From contig JAGWJP010000002.1 of the NCBI GenBank assembly GCA_028865725.1, forward strand, positions 104,050 through 168,049: a stretch of 64,000 nucleotides of DNA, in the 5' to 3' direction. The notes beneath the pieces are model-generated. The model saw only the letters and a program-made list of their open reading frames with translations, did not search any database and was not told the origin of the DNA. The stretch is from Patescibacteria group bacterium. GTDB taxonomy: Bacteria; Patescibacteriota; Minisyncoccia; UBA6257; JACRHW01. How positions within the stretch are numbered: the stretch's first letter is position 1; each line of letters opens with the position of its first letter. Made by a program: the position numbers and the translations under genes. Positions 1,228-64,000 of this stretch are shown here, in pieces.

Positions 1228-4200
1228 TTATTGGATCATATCGCGAAGAGTGCAGTACTCACAATCCTTTTCTTCACATCGCACATCCCAAAACGATAAA
1301 TGAAGAACATCGGTAGCCATGTGTTTAATCTCCTCCTCTAATCCCCGTACATCTTCTTCGGTAATATCAAAACATTCTTTTTTATAGATTCCGCGCTCGT
1401 TCGGCTCCAAAAAATCAATCTCTCCCGAGGTCATACGATACCGCCCTTGTTCATAGCGATCAAGCAGAAGTTTATAAAATACTAATTGTCTCTTATAATC
1501 ACCATTCCCATCTTTTGTCAAACCTTCAATGGCGTTCCTCGACATAGGCTTTTTCGTTTTGTAATCAACCACATTTACTCCGTTTCCTACTCCAAGCTCT
1601 ACCTTATCGATACGACCCGCAAGCTTCACCGGTGTGAACTCATCCGAAACTGATAATGTGGCCCCCTCCACAAAAAACTCAGTTAATACGTTTATATTCC
1701 ACGTGTTTTTATAATACTCGTAATATCCACGCAACGCATCTTTTCCACGCACCAGAAAATCCTGATACTGCTCTCCGGAAAGTGAAGTTTTTCCTAACTC
1801 ATACTCGAACGCACCAAGCACCATTTCCGGAGTGACAGGATCCCCCTTTCTGAGCCGCATGAATAACATATTCATGGCCGCATGTGCAGCGATACCATAG
1901 AGTGCGATAGGCACCTTCGCCCGGGGAATACGCAATAAGTCGCTATAAAAATACTTCCAAGGACACTCACGGTAATGGTTAAGTGCCGTCGGAGAGATAC
2001 CACGTTCCTCGAAACACTGCGCAATAAACTTTTTTTCATAAATTGATTCCGGCGTTACCATGCGTGGTGTACACAATAATTCTGATACTTCAGAAGACTC
2101 ACTTGCGTGATGCGCAGTGCAGTCTATGGTTTCTTTGTGTGTGGGATCAATTTCGCCAATAAATTGGGACGGGAGCATCTCCGCCCCATCAGCAGTGTGG
2201 GTAGCATAGCTTATCACGAGACGCTTTGCGGCACGAGTAAGCGCCACATAAAAAATGTGACGCTCATCATCATTGCGATTCCCCTCACGTTCTTGTTCCC
2301 CTACCCCTGCACGCGAAACACTAAACTGTTCGCGATTCCTTCTATTCCCCCAGTGTCCGTCGGTAACACCAATCATATACACATAATCAAACTCGAGTCC
2401 TTTTGCCTTATGCACCGTCATCCCACGCACCCCTCCCGTATGTGCACCGTTTTTTGCGCCCTTGATTACCAGGTTATGCGCCTCGACCACATCAAGATAA
2501 TGAATAAGATCGCGAAGACGACATCCAGGATTTCCTTCCTCGAGACGTTCTATTTCCTGAAACAATACTTTTATTTTCGAAAGTTTCGCAGCAGCATCTG
2601 GGCGCGCAAGGATAAACCCAAGAAGCCCAGAATCACGAATAACGTTTTCACACAATTCACTTGCGCTAATGCGCTCTGCGCTCTCTGCCCACGCGCGCAT
2701 ATTGCGCCCCCAAGAAAGAAGCGCATCGCGCGACTCGTACATAGGATCGTCTTCGCGGGACAACCTCGCGAGCACGCCGTAAATACCGTCACGCGTATTA
2801 TGCGCAGTAACAATCACGCGATAGACATCAAGCGGGTGAATTCCAAAATAAGGAAGGTGCAGTGCACGCGCAGCCCACTCTCCTTCTCCAAAATAATGGA
2901 TAGCCTTTAATACGACAAGGAGATTCTTTACGTCAAGATCATCAAGCACATTGTGATCAGACTGGATGGAAAACGGGATCCTCATCTTTTCAAACACATG
3001 TGCCACCGCCACCACATCGTTATTATCGCGATACAACACCGCGATCGACTCGGGCGAAACGCCGTGGTCAAGAGACTCCCGTATGTCATACCCCAAAAAA
3101 TAATACTCGTCTTCCGGCGAATAGTACGCATGAATTTCTACCTGTTTTCCTGTTCCTTGACGTGCAGCACGAAGCTCATGATTGAGATCATTATCACCTT
3201 CTCCTTTGGTAATAAGACTATGCGCAGCATCAAGAATCTTCTGCGTAGAGCGATAATTGTCCTCAAGCGTAATCGCTTTGGCGTGCGGATACTTCTCGAG
3301 AAAATAGAGAAAATTTTGAAGCGACGCGCCCTGAAAACGAAAAATCGCCTGCTTTGCATCTCCCACAATAAAAATATTGGGGTGGGGATCGTAATTAACA
3401 AGCAAGTCGAGAAGCGTGTTTTGTGCATTGTTCACATCTTGATGCTCGTCTGCCAATACATAATGGTACTGTTCCTGAAGCATTAAAAGAAGATTGCTAT
3501 CAAGCGCCAATGCACGCACTACCTCAAGAATCATATCGTTGTAGTCATAGCGTTTTCGTTCTTGCAACATCTGTTCATACTCTGCGTACACAATTCCCAA
3601 CTCCCTATTTTTCTCAAGCGCATGCTCCTGCTTTACATATTCTGACTTCATCTTTCCTTTATGCGCGCCTTTCGTATGGTAGAGATCATCACGCGAAAGA
3701 AACACCTCTTTCTCCTTTGCAGTTTGTGTAGCAAATACATCTTCAGTAACTCCCTCGCGTTTTAACTCTGCAAGAGCGCGTATAATGCCCCGCGCATAGT
3801 AGAGTGGATCTCCCGCAGGCCGCAAAAGAGAAAGTGGTGCATGCGCGACAATCTCCTCGATATATTCAAACTGCTCTGCCTCGGTGATGTGCGTCGCCCC
3901 GATGATGCGCGGGAAGGATTCTGGATACGCTTGAATGAGATCGTTACAAAATTTATGAAACGTAGCGATCCGCACCCCGTATGCCGCGCTCCCCACCACA
4001 TCAAAAAGCCGCTTCCGCATATTGGCAGCGGCAGCATCGGTAAAGGTAAGCGCCAAGATACTCGAAGGTGCGGTATCAGTGCACTTTAAGATGTTTGCGA
4101 TGCGAAGCGTAAGCACCTTTGTCTTTCCCGTACCAGGCCCTGCAAACACCACCACGGGCCCCTCAATTGCATCGACTGCTTTGCGCTGTTTTGTATTAAG

Positions 4201-5957: not shown

Positions 5958-7748
5958 CTACTTAAACACTTCGTAAAAGATGTGCGGCTCTACTGTTACC
6001 TTCCCTAATTCCTTAAGACGCTTTTTTCCCTCCTTCTGTTTTTTCCATAATTTCATTTTTCGGCTGCGGTCGCCTCCATACAAATAGCCCGTGACATCTT
6101 TGCGAAGTGCGGGAATAGTTTCCCGTGCCACAATCCTCGATCCCACTGCCGCTTGAATGGCCACAGCAAAATTTTCCCGCGGCAACAGATCTTTCAACTT
6201 TGCCGCCACCGCACGTCCCTCACGTTCTATTTTACTCTTTGGAAGGATTCTTGAAAATCCATCGAAACGCTCTCCTGCAATTAAAATATCGAGACGCTCC
6301 AGATCGCCTTTTCTATATTCAAGAAACGTATAGCTCATAGAAGCATATCCTTGTGAAACACTCTTTAAGTTATCATAAAAATTCACAATAATCTCAGCAA
6401 GCGGTGCCTCGAAATGAATCACCTGCCCATCTCCAAACCCTTCAACACCCATCAATTGAAGGCGATAATTCTCTACTAATTGCAGCACATTGCCGTAGTA
6501 ACGTTGTGGTGCAAGAATCTCAAGACGCACCCAAGGCTCTCGTATCTCAAGCGCCTGTTCATTCATATCATAATCAGAGGCACGATAAATAAGACGCACG
6601 ATCCCATCCTTCCCTGCCACTTGATACGACACGGAAGGAGTGGTCACCATCATCTCAATATTATACTCTCGCTTCATGCGTTCGATTGCCACATCAAGAT
6701 GCAACAGGCCTAAAAATCCCGCGCGAAACCCGCGCCCGAAAATCAACGATTGTTCAGGTTCATAGAATAGCGCCGCATCATTCAGTTTTAATTTAGAGAG
6801 AGACCGCGCAAGATGCGGATAATCATCCGCAGACGAAGGATAACACGACACGAATACCATAGGACGTGGTTCCTCGTATCCGGGAAACGGCTCCACTCTG
6901 CCTGCGTCCACATCTCGACGCACGACAATTGTATCTCCTACGCGTACTACTCCAGGATCCTTAATTCCTGTCGCAATATACCCTATCTCTCCTGTATACA
7001 AGCAGACTGATGTTTCATGAGTAGGATTAAAGTAGCCTACTTCCATAATATCGGCGTCTTTTTTGTTTTGAAACAACACCATGCGTTCATGCGCGCGAAA
7101 TTCACCGTCTAAGACACGCACGTTTGCGATAACTCCTTTATGATTATCGAAATGCGAATCAAAAATAAGCGCACGGCTAGAACGCGAAGCATTGCCTGTA
7201 GGAGGCGGGATCTCCGCCACTATCGTCTCGAGAAGATTGCGTACTCCTTCTCCGGTTTTTCCGGAAATAAGCTTCACGCGATCCATCTCTACTCCTACAA
7301 GCTGGGCAAGCTCCATCACGCGCGTCTCAAGATCCTGCGGCGCCAAATCAATTTTATTGAGGGCAGGAATAATAGTAAGTCCGCATTGTTGCGCAAACAT
7401 ATAGTTGGCAAGCGTCTGGGCCTGTATTCCTTGTGTTGCATCCACCAACAGAACAGCACCCTCTACCGCGAGAAGCGAACGAGATACTTCATATGCAAAA
7501 TCAGCATGGCCAGGGGTATCAATGAGATTCAACACATAAGGCATGTCAGTGCCCTCCGGCGTATACATCATCCGCACAGGCTGCAATTTAATCGTGATCC
7601 CCCGCTCCCGCTCAAGATCCATCTGATCCAAAAATTGTTCGCGCATTTTTCGCTTCTCCACAGTGTGCGTCATTTCTAAAAACCGATCTGCAAGTGTAGA
7701 CTTCCCATGATCAATATGCGCAATAATACAAAAATTTCTAATATTCAT
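5958..7748 (-). CDS. lepA: Elongation factor 4 (LepA)
   Basis: 596 aa; NIRNFCIIAHIDHGKSTLADR G1 motif, DTPGHADF, NKIDL; LepA-specific C-terminal domain. Confidence 0.95.
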   Translation of the reverse strand: MNIRNFCIIAHIDHGKSTLADRFLEMTHTVEKRKMREQFLDQMDLERERGITIKLQPVRMMYTPEGTDMPYVLNLIDTPGHADFAYEVSRSLLAVEGAVLLVDATQGIQAQTLANYMFAQQCGLTIIPALNKIDLAPQDLETRVMELAQLVGVEMDRVKLISGKTGEGVRNLLETIVAEIPPPTGNASRSSRALIFDSHFDNHKGVIANVRVLDGEFRAHERMVLFQNKKDADIMEVGYFNPTHETSVCLYTGEIGYIATGIKDPGVVRVGDTIVVRRDVDAGRVEPFPGYEEPRPMVFVSCYPSSADDYPHLARSLSKLKLNDAALFYEPEQSLIFGRGFRAGFLGLLHLDVAIERMKREYNIEMMVTTPSVSYQVAGKDGIVRLIYRASDYDMNEQALEIREPWVRLEILAPQRYYGNVLQLVENYRLQLMGVEGFGDGQVIHFEAPLAEIIVNFYDNLKSVSQGYASMSYTFLEYRKGDLERLDILIAGERFDGFSRILPKSKIEREGRAVAAKLKDLLPRENFAVAIQAAVGSRIVARETIPALRKDVTGYLYGGDRSRKMKLWKKQKEGKKRLKELGKVTVEPHIFYEVFK

Positions 7749-17908: not shown

Positions 17909-19156
17909 CTAGACAGGAAGGTTCGGGGGCGGCTGTCCTTTTTTTGTTTCCAGTCTATGCAAAAACGGAGCCGCGACATTCGCCATCGGATAATGATAAA
18001 TCGTCGCAAGCTCTTCCGTTGACATTACCATACTCTTTTGCGGAAAAAGTCTCAATTGGTACGCGCGATATATATCCTCCTTCATAAGGAATTCGGTTCT
18101 TTTCTTAAAGAACAAGCTCTTGGGGCCGGGAAGCGTCGCCAAATTAGGCACAAACCCGTTCATGTGAGTCGTATTAAAAATCTTAAACGCACCCGCGAGC
18201 GCTGCTACGTTTACGCGCGTGAATTGATCTCTACGATCAATATAAATCATACGCATTCCTGTCTCAAATGCGAGTTGTGACATTTTTCGCTCCACCGCTT
18301 CAAGTACCTCTCGTTTTCCCGGAGTTAATTTGGTCACATCACTCTCCTTCTTAGGAGCCTCCGCACTCCATGTGGGATGCTCAAAGGGCGCTTTTAAAAG
18401 ATTTACGATAAACTCAAGCAGTCCCTCGATCAATCCATCAAAAAACCCTTTTTTCAGTATAATGGGAACCCCTGATAATTTTTTAATCACAAGGTCGCCT
18501 TCTTCCTTAAATGCTTTGCGTGCAGGTTTGATAAGAATCTGGATCCACATCAATTCATCATTTTTCAACTGACTCATAGTCTCAATCACGCTTGACAACG
18601 GATCAACGCGACGCTCTTCTTTTACTTCTTCGAAGCTCGGATAAGTTCTTATTGGAAAGGGGCTCTCGTTTGTAAACACGTAATCCGCGCCCCAGATATC
18701 ATAATCCTTGTTCGGAAGCACATCCGCAATCGCATGCGTATAATCGTCTACCCCCACCACTTCGGCATCGGGATACTGCGCATACACTTGCGATTCAATT
18801 AAATTTTTGAACTTACTCGGTGTATGTATATAAAAATGAACACCGCCCCCCGTGCCCGCAATCTCAAAACTTATCCATTCCTGGAATGTACCTTTGAGAA
18901 ATGCATCCCGCGGGCGTATAAATGCCTGAATCGCGTGCATGCCATTAAAAATCTGCTCCATTGACTTGGGAGTTTTTAATATCTCTTTAGGAATCCGAAC
19001 CTCAAGGGTAATCCACGAAATGCTCGATGCATACATCGCGGTCACATACATTTTCCAAAAATCTACAAGAACCAAATACAACACCAGCGGAAGTATAAAC
19101 CACCATACCAGACCCCACACCATGAGAATACTTGAAAAAAGTCCTGAGACAATCAC
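17909..19156 (-). CDS. Hypothetical membrane protein (two N-terminal TM helices, large soluble domain) adjacent to DUF87 ATPase
   Basis: 415 aa; N-terminal hydrophobic helices VWGLVWWFILPLVLYLVLV; no known catalytic motif; 90-bp spacing to ATPase gene on same strand. Confidence 0.5.
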   Translation of the reverse strand: MIVSGLFSSILMVWGLVWWFILPLVLYLVLVDFWKMYVTAMYASSISWITLEVRIPKEILKTPKSMEQIFNGMHAIQAFIRPRDAFLKGTFQEWISFEIAGTGGGVHFYIHTPSKFKNLIESQVYAQYPDAEVVGVDDYTHAIADVLPNKDYDIWGADYVFTNESPFPIRTYPSFEEVKEERRVDPLSSVIETMSQLKNDELMWIQILIKPARKAFKEEGDLVIKKLSGVPIILKKGFFDGLIEGLLEFIVNLLKAPFEHPTWSAEAPKKESDVTKLTPGKREVLEAVERKMSQLAFETGMRMIYIDRRDQFTRVNVAALAGAFKIFNTTHMNGFVPNLATLPGPKSLFFKKRTEFLMKEDIYRAYQLRLFPQKSMVMSTEELATIYHYPMANVAAPFLHRLETKKGQPPPNLPV

Positions 19157-22751: not shown

Positions 22752-22860
22752 AGAAATAATAAAAATTCAAAATGTACAATTCACAACACCACAGGCAAAA
22801 ACTTAAAAAAATAAATGTACTTATCTTGTTTGCCTCATTCATCCGCATTATGCGGACTCA

Positions 22861-22988
22861 TGTGCCCCCAGTAGGCTCGGTCACAAGTTTGCCTTCGGGC
22901 AACTCGCGACCCCGCCTCCCCGCCCCGGGCAGGTCCGGCTTTCGAGTCCAAACGTGAGTGAAATCATTCACTCACTCTGTGTGCACTC
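22861..22988 (-). mobile_element. tRNA-Lys-associated miniature element: 113-bp insert bounded by 15-bp direct repeat of the tRNA 3' end, with conserved core shared with the tRNA-Asn locus
   Basis: TGTGCCCCCAGTAGG at 22861..22875 repeats 22989..23003 (tRNA-Lys T-stem/acceptor 3' half). Internal core CGGTCACAA-hairpin-TCGCGACCCCGCCTCCCC...GGTCCGGCTTTCGAGTCC matches 60927..61005. Confidence 0.55.
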
Positions 22989-22990
22989 TG

Positions 22991-23063
22991 TGCCCCCAGT
23001 AGGACTCGAACCTACGACCGTTTGCTTAAAAGGCAACTGCTCTACCAACTGAGCTATAGGGGC
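22991..23063 (-). tRNA. tRNA-Lys (anticodon UUU)
   Basis: 73-nt cloverleaf on minus strand: acceptor GCCCCTA/TGGGGGC, D-arm GCTC-AGTTGGTA-GAGC, anticodon loop CTTTTAA, T-arm GTAGG-TTCGAGT-CCTAC, discriminator A; CCA not encoded. Confidence 0.9.
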
Positions 23064-23206: not shown

Positions 23207-24142
23207 TTAATGCCCATCGGGATGCAAAACCTCATTCAGCTCTCCATCCCTATCATGCGCATCCGCAACAGCCCTTGCGACACTTGCCTGCGTTGATTTG
23301 CAGGTACGCACAAGCGCATCAAGATCTTGATCTTCATGATCATCGTGCTGCGTCCCCGCCAGCTTTTCAAGCAAACTCATCAACGCGTGATTACTCCTCG
23401 CCGCAATCAATTCTTCCTTCATCCTACAAAGAAGCTGTTCGGCTCTCTGAATCACACCACGGAATGTCGCGAAATAATGCGTTCGCCCGAGGTCGCTGTC
23501 GATCACGAGTCCATACGTATTCTCGTAACTCGTCAAATAATCCACGATCATCTGGACTACCTCGACCAAGCGCGCGCGAATCGCGATCGCCTCTTCTCGA
23601 GAAATACTCTCGTCAAGCAAAAGATCAATCACCATTTTACCGAGCTCGCCCGGCACATCGCCGAGACCGTGAAGCCGCGTCTGAGGACGCATTTCAAGAT
23701 CTTCCGCCGAAGGAACCGCCCCCGGCTCACGCTTATCACCCTTAATATAAGGCCATGTGGCCTCAACCGCAAAAAACTCAATCAGTTCCTGCCCAGCCTT
23801 GCTCGTAAACTCGGTAAACTTCGAATTCGGCACATGAAGACTCAAAATCCTGTCCCAACACGCACGCATGGTATTTTTGTGCGTTTCAAGATTATCCTCA
23901 TCGCCTCTCTTCAAGGCATTGATCGCACTCTTCGAGGCAAGATTATGCTCCGTGAGATTTTGATATCCTTGCCCAATACTTCTCCGAAGCTTTTCAAAAA
24001 GATCCGCGAGGGAAACTTCCTCACCCCTTAACTGCTCACGATCATTTCTCAACGATTCTCTAAAATAATTCACTTTTTCCTTTTCCTTTCTTTTCAATAT
24101 CGCACCCATAGGATACGACGTTCTGGTGGTCATATACCACAA
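23207..24142 (-). CDS. Hypothetical protein (311 aa)
   Basis: Long ORF with good coding periodicity, own terminator; no motif recognised. Confidence 0.45.
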   Translation of the reverse strand: MWYMTTRTSYPMGAILKRKEKEKVNYFRESLRNDREQLRGEEVSLADLFEKLRRSIGQGYQNLTEHNLASKSAINALKRGDEDNLETHKNTMRACWDRILSLHVPNSKFTEFTSKAGQELIEFFAVEATWPYIKGDKREPGAVPSAEDLEMRPQTRLHGLGDVPGELGKMVIDLLLDESISREEAIAIRARLVEVVQMIVDYLTSYENTYGLVIDSDLGRTHYFATFRGVIQRAEQLLCRMKEELIAARSNHALMSLLEKLAGTQHDDHEDQDLDALVRTCKSTQASVARAVADAHDRDGELNEVLHPDGH

Positions 24143-57739: not shown

Positions 57740-58282
57740 TTATTTACTCTTCTTATTACGCTTTTTTGCAGATCGCAACACGCGCTGAAGAATCCTGATT
57801 TCGTCCTCGAGCCCTCTCACCATAGTTTGCATATGACGCACAGCTCCCTGGTCAGCACCCTCAAAGGTTGCAAACGTTCCTAGTAGTTCCTCTCTCGAAA
57901 ATCCATAATATAAATAATATGCACTGGGGTTTACATAAATCCGATAATAAAACGAGGCCACTTTCACGGAATACCCTTCATACCCAAAATACTTCCATGG
58001 TAGCTGTCGCTTCTTTCGTTTCGCAGGAGTACGCATATTCTTTTCCTCCTTCTTTTCTTCCGGATCAGAGAGCATCTGAGTAAAGAACTGACAAGTTAAG
58101 CATTGCGTGATGTGAATCAATCGTTCTTCAGGAAGATCAGGATATGCCTCCCACTCCTCGATCCCAAGACAATCAGGCGTTGAGGGAGTTTGATGAAACG
58201 TTTCATCAAGTCTTCGCTGTAAATCCTCTGAAGTCATGCCCCACTCACGTGCAGCCGCCTCTAATGCTTCATTTTCGTCCAT
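57740..58282 (-). CDS. Hypothetical protein (180 aa)
   Basis: Intact ORF with terminator (57700..57735); C-terminal basic tail. Confidence 0.35.
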   Translation of the reverse strand: MDENEALEAAAREWGMTSEDLQRRLDETFHQTPSTPDCLGIEEWEAYPDLPEERLIHITQCLTCQFFTQMLSDPEEKKEEKNMRTPAKRKKRQLPWKYFGYEGYSVKVASFYYRIYVNPSAYYLYYGFSREELLGTFATFEGADQGAVRHMQTMVRGLEDEIRILQRVLRSAKKRNKKSK

Positions 58283-60715: not shown

Positions 60716-60907
60716 ATGATGTTATATTATTAATCTTTTATTTACCTATAAAGTTTACCTTGTTTGTAAACGCAACTCAATATGAACCAGCAGAAAAAGG
60801 CTCTTTGTGAGCTGTCTACTTGAGAACCCTAGCGTAAACGAAAAAACACTAGTATTTACCTTGCGTTCTCCATATCATCTAGTCCTAGAACTAGCTAACA
60901 ATCCATC

Positions 60908-61079
60908 TTGGCTCCGGCGGCAGGATGCGGTCACAACTTTTTCGCTACGCGAAAAGTCGCGACCCCGCCTCCCCATCGACAAGCTCAGGGTCCGGCTTTC
61001 GAATCCTGACGAAAGCAAATACATTTGCTTTCTCCTCCTCAAAACCAATACAAAATACCTCACAAGGAGGTATTTTGTA
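60908..61079 (-). mobile_element. tRNA-Asn-associated miniature element: 153-bp insert bounded by 19-bp direct repeat of the tRNA 3' end, core shared with tRNA-Lys locus
   Basis: TTGGCTCCGGCGGCAGGAT at 60908..60926 repeats 61080..61098 (3' end of tRNA-Asn incl. CCA). Core CGGTCACAA-hairpin-TCGCGACCCCGCCTCCCC...GGTCCGGCTTTCGAATCC. Includes an 18-bp terminator-like hairpin 61041..61080. Confidence 0.55.
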
Positions 61080-61080
61080 T

Positions 61081-61155
61081 TGGCTCCGGCGGCAGGATTC
61101 GAACCTACGACCATCTCGTTAACAGCGAGCCGCTCTACCACTGAGCTACGCCGGA
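61081..61155 (-). tRNA. tRNA-Asn (anticodon GUU), CCA encoded
   Basis: Minus-strand cloverleaf: acceptor TCCGGCG/CGCCGGA, D-arm GCTC-AGTGGTA-GAGC, anticodon loop CTGTTAA, T-arm GTAGG-TTCGAAT-CCTGC, discriminator G + CCA. Confidence 0.9.
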
Positions 61156-61289: not shown

Positions 61290-63173
61290 TTACTTTTGAA
61301 TAGGGATCGTGAGAACCTTATCTTCATCCAAGATATAATCGGGGAGCGGACAGGAAAATATTTGAAGCTCCACTTCCTGGGTCTCCGTCTTACTTTCTCG
61401 GAACGGATCTAACGAAGGCACCGCTTCCCATGTTGCACTTTCTGATTCCACGGGAATTTTCCTTTCCCTATAGGGAAGCTCGGTGGGAGGATACACAAAT
61501 TGCACATACACTTTTTGCGGATCGCCTGCACCTCCGCCTCTGTTCAACAGTTGCTTGAGAAATTCGTCAGGCGTATCCGCAGTATGATTAATCCTATGCT
61601 CGGGATTCAAATCTCTGAATTGAGATCCCGATGCCACGCTGATGAGAAGCGACGGAATTGGCGAAGAAAAATCCAAGTTGTCAGGAACCCGAAATGGCAC
61701 CGTGAGCTTGTATTTTTTCTCCCCGCGAAAATCACGCCACAGGAGAAGCAGTTGGTAGTTTTCTCCGGCTTGTACCTCATCCACAGGTTTATGGTTCTTA
61801 TCCAAAATACAGCAGGAATCTACCCAGAGTTTTTTAACTCCTGAACGTACCGTCACCGCAATATCAACTTCCGCAATATTGAAATTCCATTCGCTTGCGA
61901 TAAGAGCGCCCACCCTCCCAGTAATAGTGCCAAAGAGAAGGGCAACAGGATCAACCGTAATGCCGCGTATATTCAACACAGGGGTGAGCAGCGCTGAATT
62001 CGAGAAAGAAAACGGTGTACGGTCTTTGAACAGCACCGATGTATCCATGCGCAAGGTCGATTCATTGCCGACCGAAATAATTGATTCCGAAAGATTTGAA
62101 AGACCCATCACCATAAGGAGGCGGGAGAGCGCTCTTTGCCGTACAACCCCAAAATGATACGCAGCGACCTTGCCATCAACATCCAGCTTCAACGAAACCG
62201 GCATCATGCAAGAATGATCCTCTGACCCATACCTTCCTTCAATGCCGAAAATACCATCTTTATAAATGGTACCAAAATGCTCAAGAAGCCGTTCCGGCAT
62301 TTTGTAGGAATCTGCATATCCAAGCGACGTTGTTGCGATTGAGGCATGATAGGCGGGCATCTCCATAGGACCAAGCCCGAGATCTGCAAGAAATGGGTGA
62401 CCAAATGCGACAAACCGGTTTGAAAGGGTATCCACATAAGTAATCGTCCCTGTTGCATACATCGTGAAGTCACCGTCCGCCAGGACTGCAGAGATTGCAT
62501 CTCCCGGTCGCGGTATGGCTTCTTGTCTCGACGTTTCGGATTGCGGAGCAGATATCTCATTGGCTTCCTTATGAATTACAAGCAGAGATCGTATTGCACA
62601 TCTCCCAAATCCCGGGAGCGATACCACGCTCTTTTTTTGGAAATGCCGCAGAAAATTATTTACATCAACCCCCGAAGCTTTAATGTGCAACGCCGCATTT
62701 TGGTCAAGCATATCCTGGATAGGAGTCACTCCCACAAGAAACTCACCCTTGGGAGCAAGTTGGTTCATTCCGTATGCATAGGCACCCAAAAGGCGCCATT
62801 CGCCTCTGACGTGCGCGTACACAGGAGATCCACTCATACCCGCCACCGTACAAACATGGGCAAGCGGCGGACCTACTCGGAATAACATAATATGTGCTTG
62901 GCTGATAAATGGATTTTCTACAGTTCCTGCATATGAGAGCAGGCCCGCTTCTCGCCTCGTTCCGTGCATGACAGAAAGACTGTAAGCATGCATCCCAAAA
63001 GTAAGATCCTTGTATGTTCCAAAATTACGAGTGATCCCATTCGTCGCATGAACCCACCTCATAAACTGAGCCTTCCCGTCTTTATGCGAAGAAGCAACGG
63101 GTCGATACGCAATTGCATTTCCATAAGAACACATCATCACCAAAAATGCGATTATCGATACCTTGAATCTCAT
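61290..63173 (-). CDS. Secreted serine peptidase-like protein (GMSGSP active-site motif, SpoIVB/S55- or trypsin-like)
   Basis: Signal peptide MRFKVSIIAFLVMMCSYGNAIA (start 63173 preferred over ORF-track 63341); TVAGMSGSPVYA resembles the serine nucleophile motif of SpoIVB/chymotrypsin-fold proteases; later GTITYVD..FGHPF segment. Confidence 0.5.
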   Translation of the reverse strand: MRFKVSIIAFLVMMCSYGNAIAYRPVASSHKDGKAQFMRWVHATNGITRNFGTYKDLTFGMHAYSLSVMHGTRREAGLLSYAGTVENPFISQAHIMLFRVGPPLAHVCTVAGMSGSPVYAHVRGEWRLLGAYAYGMNQLAPKGEFLVGVTPIQDMLDQNAALHIKASGVDVNNFLRHFQKKSVVSLPGFGRCAIRSLLVIHKEANEISAPQSETSRQEAIPRPGDAISAVLADGDFTMYATGTITYVDTLSNRFVAFGHPFLADLGLGPMEMPAYHASIATTSLGYADSYKMPERLLEHFGTIYKDGIFGIEGRYGSEDHSCMMPVSLKLDVDGKVAAYHFGVVRQRALSRLLMVMGLSNLSESIISVGNESTLRMDTSVLFKDRTPFSFSNSALLTPVLNIRGITVDPVALLFGTITGRVGALIASEWNFNIAEVDIAVTVRSGVKKLWVDSCCILDKNHKPVDEVQAGENYQLLLLWRDFRGEKKYKLTVPFRVPDNLDFSSPIPSLLISVASGSQFRDLNPEHRINHTADTPDEFLKQLLNRGGGAGDPQKVYVQFVYPPTELPYRERKIPVESESATWEAVPSLDPFRESKTETQEVELQIFSCPLPDYILDEDKVLTIPIQK

Positions 63174-63282
63174 GATGCACTCCTTGTGTTTTCTATGAGC
63201 TATATTGAGCCTAGTACAAACGTCCCCAAAATACAAGCGATCACCCAAGTGATCGCTTGTACCCCTACTCCCTGCTTCTCCC

Positions 63283-64000
63283 TTATAAGGTGGTCGTAGA
63301 TATTGTAGGATTCTCTTCAAAATCAACCTCACACACCCCACTTACGCATGCAAGCTCCTTTTTCACTTCGGTCATGTCCTCGTTTTCATACAAGACAAGC
63401 TTTGAAAAATCGATTTTGGGAAACTTGGCGCTAAGCTCTGCGTACTTTTCCGCGGTAATTTCTTCGTAGGGTGCAAGGCGGTAAACATGATTACTGCGCG
63501 GTAGGAATGAAAGCCCTCCGATCATGTCCCAATTTTCATGCACCCACGCCCCTACACGCAACCACTCATCTTCTCCCACCGAAATTGTCGTGGATGGATT
63601 ATGCTCGGTAAAATTTTCTTTTACCATCTTCCAGTACTCAAGCTGCTGCCATGCGCTCAAATCATCTTTATACACCGTTCCCTTTGCCGCAGGCGCTTTA
63701 ATCGGAAACTCAACCACATACGTTGTCGCGTTTTCTTTTGTCTGCCCCACTTCCGGTTCATAGGGCACACCCATATCGCGAAGCATCTTGAAAATAGGAT
63801 TATGCCCTTCAATACGCACGCGACGAATATAATAGCGCGCGTGACGAGGGTGCATACCAGATGAGGAATCAAAAAGTTGGGAGCCGTTACCTGACGGCTT
63901 TACGCATGTCACGGCTGCCGAACGATTAATACCAAACCGCTCTGCGTATTTACGATTGGTCTCGAGTGCGATCTCCTTCAACTTGCGAAACACGGATGCG
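63283..64000 (-). CDS. Ribonucleotide reductase C-terminal region (class II adenosylcobalamin-dependent type, tentative), 5'-truncated by window edge
   Basis: C-terminal ACVSGVCEVDFEENP Cys pair typical of RNR C-terminal redox tails; gene continues past position 64000. Confidence 0.45.
   Translation of the reverse strand, partial: ASVFRKLKEIALETNRKYAERFGINRSAAVTCVKPSGNGSQLFDSSSGMHPRHARYYIRRVRIEGHNPIFKMLRDMGVPYEPEVGQTKENATTYVVEFPIKAPAAKGTVYKDDLSAWQQLEYWKMVKENFTEHNPSTTISVGEDEWLRVGAWVHENWDMIGGLSFLPRSNHVYRLAPYEEITAEKYAELSAKFPKIDFSKLVLYENEDMTEVKKELACVSGVCEVDFEENPTISTTTL

Follow-up and report, generated by a model that had tools for sequence, protein, structure and literature searches.

A protein-less, structure-defined module with host-derived flanks behind tRNA and tmRNA genes of Patescibacteria and Elusimicrobium

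The inserts behind tRNA-Lys and tRNA-Asn

The window analysed here is a stretch of 64,000 nucleotides (nt) of a Patescibacteria group bacterium (contig JAGWJP010000002.1 of assembly GCA_028865725.1, positions 104,050 to 168,049 of the forward strand). It contains only two tRNA genes, tRNA-Lys(ttt) and tRNA-Asn(gtt), and the short insert that lies behind each of them is the subject of this study. An earlier note, made from the sequence of the window, had reported that the last 15 nt at the tRNA-Lys 3' end recur downstream, and had explained this by site-specific integration of a miniature element resembling a cis-mobilisable element (CIME). The duplication is exactly as described. The 15-mer TGTGCCCCCAGTAGG has two occurrences in the window, at 22861-22875 and 22989-23003, with 128 nt from start to start and 113 nt in between. 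This is far beyond chance, as shuffled sequences gave a mean of 0.05 matches with up to two mismatches and none of 100 shuffles gave three or more. In the tRNA sense the similarity extends into the T-loop, where tRNA-Lys reads CGAGTCCTACTGGGGGCACA (also given as CGAGUCCUACUGGGGGCACA) and the distal copy reads CGAG-CCTACTGGGGGCACA.

The hairpin GTTTGCC-CGAA-GGCAAAC, which had been noticed within the insert, caps a helix of about 16 pairs, GGTCGCGA...TTGTGACC. Two of these are G-U pairs, which restrict the helix to the tRNA-sense strand. Folding of the Lys locus gave -65 kcal/mol (z = -5.1) for this strand, compared with -49 kcal/mol (z = -3.1) for its complement. In the window, the core GGGGAGGCGGGGTCGCGA has only two sites, one in each insert and both on the minus strand (Table 1). 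Its presence behind tRNA-Asn had also been noticed before; at that locus the 3' end of the tRNA, together with its encoded CCA, recurs about 150 nt downstream. The covariance model R1 places a module behind each of the two tRNAs, and cmsearch with this model found no further copy in the window. No tRNA is recognized within the insert by ARAGORN. In agreement with the earlier note, which had seen no integrase in the insert, a Pfam search of the neighbouring genes revealed no integrase or other mobile-element gene beside either copy.

A strand-specific fold and its host-derived flanks

An alignment of the two window copies with ten diverse relatives (12 sequences) revealed a common plan. Read in the tRNA sense, the host gene is followed by a spacer, often with an intrinsic-terminator-like palindrome, and then by leader, P2, core, P3, and tail. 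The common leader ends with GGAYUCGAA, and P2 has the form GCC-GGA-CCC...GGG-GA-GGC with a variable tip. P2 and P3 are built around the motifs AAGCCGGAC, GGGGAGGCGGGGUCGCGA, and UUGUGAC, and P3 is closed by GGUCGCGA/UUGUGACC. From CGARUCC at its start, the tail runs on as a copy of the T-stem and acceptor 3' strands of the upstream tRNA. It pairs with the leader block in a closing helix, P1, which makes the whole a three-way junction.

The fold is strongly supported by covariation. Among the 12 copies, 91.5% of the cells are paired, 12 pairs show double changes, and none of 500 shuffles matched the covariation score. An enlarged set of 108 copies gave 91.4% paired cells, compared with 35-46% when the partners are slid, and double changes at 25 of the 31 pairs. 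Two G-U pairs are retained in 106 and 100 of these 108 copies, respectively. The conserved G-U pairs can form only on the tRNA-sense strand, and the fold is thus specific to that strand. Compensatory changes supporting a fold on one strand are also what is generally asked of a structured non-coding RNA. It is established that the module is a discrete, structure-conserved, and strand-specific unit without a protein gene of its own and with flanks derived from the host gene.

Both flanks reproduce the 3' segment of the host gene. The leader, immediately before the core, is a Watson-Crick inverted copy, and the tail, immediately after it, is a direct copy. Each locus accordingly holds three versions of one segment, direct in the gene, inverted in the leader, and direct in the tail, and gene segment, terminator, and leader together make up a single long palindrome. 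Among the collected loci (numbered with L), the leader TGGTGCC..GGACTCG of L029 matches CGAGTCC..GGCACCA of tRNA-Leu, the leader of L033 matches tRNA-Gly perfectly over 18 nt, and that of L094 matches the tmRNA 3' end perfectly over 22 nt. At the Asn locus of the window, UUGGUUUU pairs with GGAGCCAA via G-U pairs, and at the Lys locus GUGCACACAG pairs with CUGGGGGCAC. The latter pairing is weak, while it is much stronger in L029, L033, and L094. P1 covaries with the tRNA type. Of 10 leader positions, an average of 8.1 pair with the tRNA and 7.6 with the tail in a set of 50 copies, so the complementarity between leader and tRNA is kept at least as well as P1. At positions that differ between tail and tRNA, the leader is paired to the tRNA alone in 58 cases and to the tail alone in 32.

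Two other origins of the flanks were rejected. The leader is not a copy of the tRNA 5' acceptor strand, as L033 carries CGGGCA, the complement of the 3' strand, and not CGGGTG, which is the tRNA's own sequence. A retro-copy of a mature tRNA is also rejected. The tail ends with CCA only where the gene encodes CCA, and therefore was not copied from the mature tRNA; the leader is complementary to the genomic sequence and not to a CCA-added 3' end.

The edges of the duplicated segment vary, and its length ranges from 6 to 60 nt. The left edge is usually C56 of the T-loop (T54 in L076); in one subfamily it is the tRNA end or the 5' arm of a terminator, and P1 has the form xTTGTG/CACAAx. The right edge is usually the tRNA end, but it lies 10 nt further in L148 and 38-39 nt further, including the terminator, in L083, L174, and the tRNA-Arg copy of L033. 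The terminator-arm subfamily and the variable right edge rule out a fixed T-loop crossover as a universal rule. In several unrelated copies (L094 at 3915-3975, L066, and L109) the tRNA copy is replaced by an alternative tail, CGAAAGCG-loop-CGCGGUUCC, which resembles a T-loop sequence split by a small hairpin.

Table 1. Parts of the two module copies and their host genes in the window.
Feature	Position	Strand	Remarks and evidence
tRNA-Lys(ttt)	22990-23063	-	ARAGORN; Rfam tRNA, 72.6 bits; segment X (T-loop to 3' end, ~22989-23008) is the source of the repeat
Leader segment GUGCACACAG	22979-22988	-	Pairable with the acceptor-strand copy of the tail, CUGGGGGCAC, at 8/10 pairs (minimum free energy fold)
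Leader hairpin GAGUGAGUGAA-UGAU-UUCACUCAC	22954-22977	-	Between tRNA and core; compensatory changes in the orthologous hairpin of L182
P1 5' strand (leader block) GUUUGGACUCG	22943-22953	-	GGACUCGAA reverse-complementary to tRNA-Lys T-loop UUCGAGUCC; 8/10 pairs with the tRNA, 7/10 with the tail
P2, GCC-GGA-CC...GG-GA-GGC	22914-22939	-	Conserved internal loop, variable tip; RNAalifold, pair counts
Invariant 18-nt core GGGGAGGCGGGGUCGCGA	22904-22921	-	Spans P2 3' strand and P3 5' strand; sequence scans
P3, GGUCGCGA + variable hairpin + UUGUGACC	22879-22913	-	Variable hairpin GUUGCC-CGAA-GGCAAAC; two conserved G-U pairs; fold and pair counts
Tail CGAG-CCUACUGGGGGCACA	22861-22878	-	Direct copy of the 3' half of the tRNA-Lys T-loop and of the T-stem and acceptor 3' strands; P1 3' strand; distal repeat of the earlier note
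Family-model match, Lys locus	22854-22961	-	cmsearch R1, 80.2 bits, E = 1e-28
tRNA-Asn(gtt), second host gene	61081-61155	-	ARAGORN, Rfam
Terminator-like palindrome CCAAUACAAAAUACCUC...GAGGUAUUUUGUAUUGG	61045-61083	-	Directly 3' of tRNA-Asn
Asn leader UUGGUUUUGAGGAGG	61034-61048	-	Pairs with the tail via G-U pairs
Second module copy, Asn locus	60904-61018	-	cmsearch R1, 101.6 bits
Asn copy, P1 5' strand	61000-61010	-
Asn copy, P2	60967-60996	-
Asn copy, core	60957-60974	-
Asn copy, P3	60929-60966	-
Asn tail CGCAUCCUGCCGCCGGAGCCAA	60908-60928	-	Copy of the tRNA-Asn 3' end including CCA

At the position of the leader hairpin, the two window copies carry hairpins of different sequence. In the Elusimicrobium copies L004, L008, L023, L031, and L041 the loop of this hairpin, AACUGCUU, is conserved on covarying stems, whatever the upstream tRNA is.

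The neighbours of the window copies encode SecD/SecF, TrmD, LeuRS, and a peptidoglycan-binding protein. The long open reading frames (ORFs) of the window lie nearly all on the minus strand, and their housekeeping content (SecD/SecF, TrmD, LeuRS, a sigma-70-like protein) is that of a typical Patescibacteria chromosome. The ORFs directly 5' of the two element-bearing tRNAs, at 23207-24142 (minus strand, 311 aa) and 61290-63341 (minus strand, 683 aa), gave no Pfam match, and neither did those at 17909-19156 and 57740-58282.

Hosts, relatives, and turnover of the family

The family was collected with an 18-mer scan, a gapped pattern, nhmmer, and cmsearch (model R1), and the upstream tRNAs were assigned with ARAGORN. 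It comprises at least about 160 copies, 157 of which were found by nhmmer and ARAGORN across the collected loci. The 18-mer scan, with one genome per species, gave about 25 true matches among 58, and the gapped pattern gave at least 120 matches in metagenomes. Carriers of the 18-mer belong to many classes of the ultra-small Patescibacteria (CPR), to gut Elusimicrobium and Elusimicrobiaceae, to a WS2 genome, and to one contig binned as Clostridia. The last one (L058, labelled Candidatus Fimivivens) has a copy almost identical to that of a Moraniibacteria metagenome-assembled genome (L015), which suggests a mis-binned contig or a recent transfer.

A same-strand tRNA is found within 300 nt upstream of 98 of the 157 copies, with a median gap of 55 nt, and 23 copies lie at contig edges. 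The hosts cover 32 tRNA anticodon types, and four copies follow tmRNA (L094, L154, L159, L060). One copy stands behind a tRNA containing a group I intron (L115). A few further copies stand behind the stop codon of rplL (L109, L074), behind a plain terminator hairpin (L142, L089), or behind a partial 5S rRNA copy (L044). At L044 (976-1360), an intact 5S rRNA ends the rRNA operon and is followed by the partial 5S-like copy, with the core inserted near its 3' hairpin. In a terminator subfamily (L150, L092, L142) the copy begins where the 3' arm of an intrinsic terminator stops. The orientation of a copy is always that of its host gene. About half of the 211 tRNAs in the collected loci bear a copy, a figure biased by the way the loci were ascertained.

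A comparison of syntenic tRNA-Lys loci, the check that the earlier note had proposed, shows that the module comes and goes. Relatives whose SecD is 76-77% identical share the gene order LeuRS–PAP2–TrmD–...–tRNA-Lys–SecD–SecF. In L180 the site is empty and secD starts 2 nt after tRNA-Lys; L181 is also empty, with a 78-nt AT-rich spacer between tRNA-Lys and secD; and L182 has two exact tandem copies of 127 nt at the same site. One locus is therefore empty, single, or tandem among relatives, which implies that the module is gained and lost as a unit. Tandem arrays are also present in L029, L033, L105, and L125. Copies at different tRNAs within one genome are 50-75% identical. They share idiosyncratic P2 and P3 arms (Arg and Gly copies of L033; Leu and Phe-2 copies of L029), while their leaders and tails are specific to the tRNA.

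A different picture is found in Elusimicrobium. Its tRNA-Asp copy is syntenic in at least eight species-level genomes with an almost unchanged core, and the leader hairpin shows compensatory changes while the flanks have diverged freely. This pattern argues for long retention under constraint.

A second arrangement (L012, L097, L116, L133) involves pseudo-tRNAs. Here a truncated 5' part of a tRNA is followed by a hairpin, P2 and P3, a short start of X, the inverted copy of that start, and then an intact identical tRNA. In L138 (2560-2840, minus strand) a pseudo-tRNA-Trp with two insertions precedes an intact tRNA-Trp. The first insertion is a canonical core at position 26/27, between the D and anticodon arms. 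The second, in the T-loop, has a divergent core, TGCCGGAC...GTGGCC, that escapes model R1, so the family is larger than counted.

The nature of the module

We put at roughly 50% the probability that the insert behind tRNA-Lys belongs to an undescribed family of mobile or duplicative modules. The copies are protein-less, structure-defined, about 100-190 nt long, and provided with target-derived flanks, and they reside at tRNA and tmRNA 3' ends, occasionally at other units, in Patescibacteria and Elusimicrobium. We infer a non-autonomous element whose conserved core is recognised by a trans-acting factor. It is most likely read as RNA, arising either by co-transcription with the tRNA or through read-through, with a folded single DNA strand as the alternative. 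New copies would take their flanks from the target, and the repeat would be a by-product of insertion that doubles as a strand of P1. As a description of the repeat, the 3' strand of the helix closing a folded module is preferable to the att or crossover core of a dedicated integrase. The integrated arrangement could arise from a closed three-armed molecule with the order X – terminator – inverted X – P2 – P3. Opening of such a molecule between UUGUGAC and X would yield the observed layout as well as tandem arrays, and it would restore the tRNA 3' end and supply a terminator. This circle-opening model is a topological fit, not a demonstrated intermediate.

The persistent complementarity of the leader to the real tRNA suggests a role in guiding or pairing, directed at the tRNA itself, its gene, or its precursor. 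More speculatively, and in our judgement rather doubtfully, the module could be an RNA-guided device. The three-way junction would then be a scaffold for a trans-acting protein or for catalysis of its own, the leader a programmable antisense guide that targets a tRNA or tmRNA in its 3' part and directs insertion, processing, or cleavage, and the tail the target product or a mimic of it. In such a case, bacteria with tiny genomes would host a protein-less, target-templated mobile RNA gene of an undescribed kind.

If the proposed family is confirmed, it represents an abundant and previously unannotated genetic module of Patescibacteria, whose genomes of roughly 1 Mb leave little room for junk. 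The combination of an RNA-like fold with host-derived flanks in both orientations suggests either a new class of regulatory RNA that pairs with tRNA or a new mode of tRNA targeting free of a dedicated integrase. For annotation, the copies are a source of spurious att-like repeats and pseudo-tRNA fragments that can lead the calling of island and prophage boundaries astray. Cultivable Saccharibacteria and Elusimicrobium make the idea directly testable.

Several points weigh against this proposal. The 108 copies were aligned by fitting them to the model, and part of the core was preset in the pattern used on metagenomes, so the conservation of those columns is partly by construction. The RNA view is based on G-U pairs, covariation, and flanking terminators, and a folded DNA of the lagging-strand template would be oriented alike. 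In many copies tRNA and core are separated by a strong terminator, so transcription of the core may be poor. No enzyme candidate emerged among the proteins near the copies. Retro-type models are weakened by the reported absence of group II introns from Patescibacteria (PMC13011429). The proposal does not account for the re-templating of both flanks at a new target. Finally, the long-term synteny in Elusimicrobium would fit a host-useful RNA just as well as a selfish element.

A host-useful RNA is rather unlikely. It would act in cis or bind tRNA, with the core as an effector or protein-binding domain and the leader pairing with the 3' part of the neighbouring tRNA; copies would arise by local duplication, without transposition, and be kept by selection. 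Such an RNA might serve in 3'-end processing, read-through control, or quality control, or act as a decoy. The Elusimicrobium tRNA-Asp copies with their compensatory changes fit well with such a function, and so does the preference of the leader for the real tRNA where the tail has drifted (58 vs 32 positions). It would also be consistent with the high share of tRNAs bearing a copy, with an orientation that follows hosts at the end of highly expressed units (tRNA, tmRNA, 5S rRNA, rplL), and with the alternative pairings of the leader, either with the upstream X or with the tail. Against it stand the presence, absence, and doubling at one orthologous locus among relatives with 76-77% SecD identity and an 18-nt core that is identical across distant phyla. 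Pseudo-tRNAs with one or two insertions beside intact tRNAs (L012, L097, L133, L138) look like insertion damage, and the core is often preceded by a terminator. The readings are partly compatible, and a selfish module may well have been domesticated.

The integration scenario of the earlier note stands in part. There is a genuine copy of the tRNA 3' end flanking a discrete insert, and empty sites exist in relatives, at tRNA-Lys–secD. In that scenario a CIME-like miniature element is moved by a tyrosine integrase encoded elsewhere, with a crossover in the T-loop and the repeat as the att identity block (attL in the tRNA, attR at the distal end). The direct repeat from T-loop to tRNA 3' end is in keeping with the classical T-loop sublocation of integrases targeting tRNA and tmRNA. 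Moreover, tmRNA is among the targets, the element supplies a terminator after the restored tRNA, tandem arrays occur besides empty sites, and prophages or islands use the same tRNAs (L103, L025, L048). A tyrosine integrase normally has one att specificity. The module instead has a single conserved core at 32 anticodon types, tmRNA, rplL, 5S rRNA, and plain terminators, and by this test it fails as a CIME. An att site predicts neither the inverted leader nor an RNA-type covariation with near-invariant G-U pairs, and the edges of the repeat vary between the T-loop, the tRNA end, and 10 to 39 nt beyond it.

The search for a cognate integrase, confined to the neighbourhoods of the copies, found none near the window copies and no protein family common to 25 loci. 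An all-against-all BLASTP of the ORFs of these 25 loci and the window revealed no protein shared near copies across phyla; the only shared ORFs reflect local synteny within Elusimicrobium. By Pfam, the neighbours of the copies are housekeeping genes or SNase, Fic, ankyrin, and phage genes. The module had no match in 50,697 deposited phage genomes (INPHARED). Among viral contigs, the 18-mer gave one chance match inside a GC-rich coding region, and the gapped pattern gave two contigs. One of them (L184, the same as L103) is an integrated prophage adjoining an array that is not carried as attP, and the other has a weak match of 26.7 bits inside an ORF. Altogether we regard an element moved by an integrase as unlikely. 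The module shares with tRNA- and tmRNA-targeting elements and CIMEs the site at the gene's 3' end, the direct repeat from T-loop to end, the intact tRNA, tandem arrays, and empty sites. Unlike them, the module is only about 110 nt long without cargo, has one core at dozens of tRNAs and at non-tRNA sites, carries an extra inverted copy of the target, shows RNA-type structural conservation, and has no link to an integrase.

A folded single-stranded DNA recombination site is very unlikely. Such a site, like integron attC, CTX-phage attP(+), or the ends of IS200/IS605, would fold in the lagging-strand template, and the duplex of leader and X would mimic a double-stranded target. The tRNA-sense strand is probably the lagging-strand template because nearly all genes of the window are on one strand. 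The strand-specific fold has conserved irregularities, the leader-X duplex reproduces the target sequence, and the circle-opening model would give the integrated layout. As in attC, attP(+), and the T-shaped hairpins of the AAV type, a branched hairpin of about 100-150 nt is specific to one strand, its stem corresponds to the target duplex, and tandem integration is possible. Yet two near-invariant G-T pairs and an internal loop conserved in sequence are more typical of RNA. The module also differs from these sites in its strong core sequence conservation and in always having the transcription orientation of the upstream gene, and it lacks an associated IntI, Xer, or Rep. No association with a Y1/HUH transposase, IntI, or Xer was seen in the 25 loci and the window. 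Elements of the IS200/IS605 type make no long duplications, whereas the module does, and in the comparison with such elements (PATE) its P2 and P3 are unlike each other.

A chance repeat or a decayed tandem duplication of a pseudo-tRNA can practically be dismissed: truncated tRNA copies do stand beside intact ones in some relatives, but the repeat is far beyond shuffles, the insert contains no tRNA, and the core recurs with covariation at about 160 loci. The pseudo-tRNA duplication named in the earlier note as the refuting outcome does not apply.

Comparison with known classes gave no assignment either. A search of the whole window against Rfam 15 gave only tRNA at the gathering score, and a search of the locus at E values up to 10 added no family; the best non-tRNA match (E = 0.0015) lies on the antisense strand of the tRNA. 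No published description of the module was found in the literature searched, including with the core sequence as query. Miniature inverted-repeat transposable elements, non-autonomous DDE transposons, have constant terminal inverted repeats and a short target duplication of fixed length. They are ruled out, as the inverted flanks (P1) vary with the host tRNA and the duplications range widely in length. A tRNA intron, of group I or another type, is also ruled out: virtual splicing of the 157 copies gives tRNAs only beside an adjacent intact tRNA, so removal of the core never yields a stand-alone tRNA. The tRNA introns described from Patescibacteria are group I introns at anticodon position 35/36 and are unrelated to the module (PMC13011429). 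The module does not qualify as a retron non-coding RNA either, as no reverse transcriptase gene is adjacent, the only one seen being inside the prophage of L103. The module thus fails the defining tests of integrase-dependent elements, miniature transposons, Rfam families, tRNA introns, and retrons, and it apparently belongs to an undescribed class.

Several likenesses to RNA-based systems are limited to parts of the module. With the omega RNAs of IscB/TnpB and the bridge RNA of IS110 it shares, in layout only, a conserved structured non-coding scaffold joined to a short variable segment that matches the insertion site. It differs from them in having no adjacent IscB, TnpB, or IS110 recombinase gene and no Rfam match to HEARO or IS605-orfB, and in that its variable segments are inverted and direct copies of one target that pair with each other. 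Bacterial class C group II introns and some other elements insert just behind terminator hairpins, and the subfamily of L150, L092, and L142 likewise starts directly behind the 3' arm of a terminator. Unlike group II introns, the module is 5- to 20-fold smaller, has no intron domains or reverse transcriptase, and its core removal never restores a stand-alone gene. With retron msr-msd it has in common the inverted repeats closing a conserved stem-loop and a long variable hairpin, and AGC right after the 5' arm; in contrast to retrons, it has no adjacent reverse transcriptase, is multi-copy at tRNA genes, and has closing repeats copied from the neighbouring gene.

Islands and prophages can sit between a tRNA and an array of copies (L025, L048, L103), and in the stretches of these islands that were read no integrase was found. 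In L103 (1700-12600, corresponding to the IMG/VR contig L184) a prophage-like region lies between a tRNA-Ser-derived junction and a three-copy array, and it encodes a phage lysozyme, a tail-repeat protein, a reverse transcriptase, and an NrdD fragment. In the Elusimicrobium loci L025 and L048 an island with SNase, Fic, and ankyrin genes separates tRNA-Asp from the element. In L009 (~6090-6180, oriented) the tRNA-Asp upstream of the element is interrupted after its first ~19 nt, where an unrelated sequence ending with GTGACCGCGGCTCCGTA takes over. Rfam matches near the copies are a group I intron (L115, 986-1221, minus strand, presumably in the upstream tRNA), a LOOT RNA (L142, 339-459, minus strand), and a SAM riboswitch (L116, 2007-2106, minus strand).

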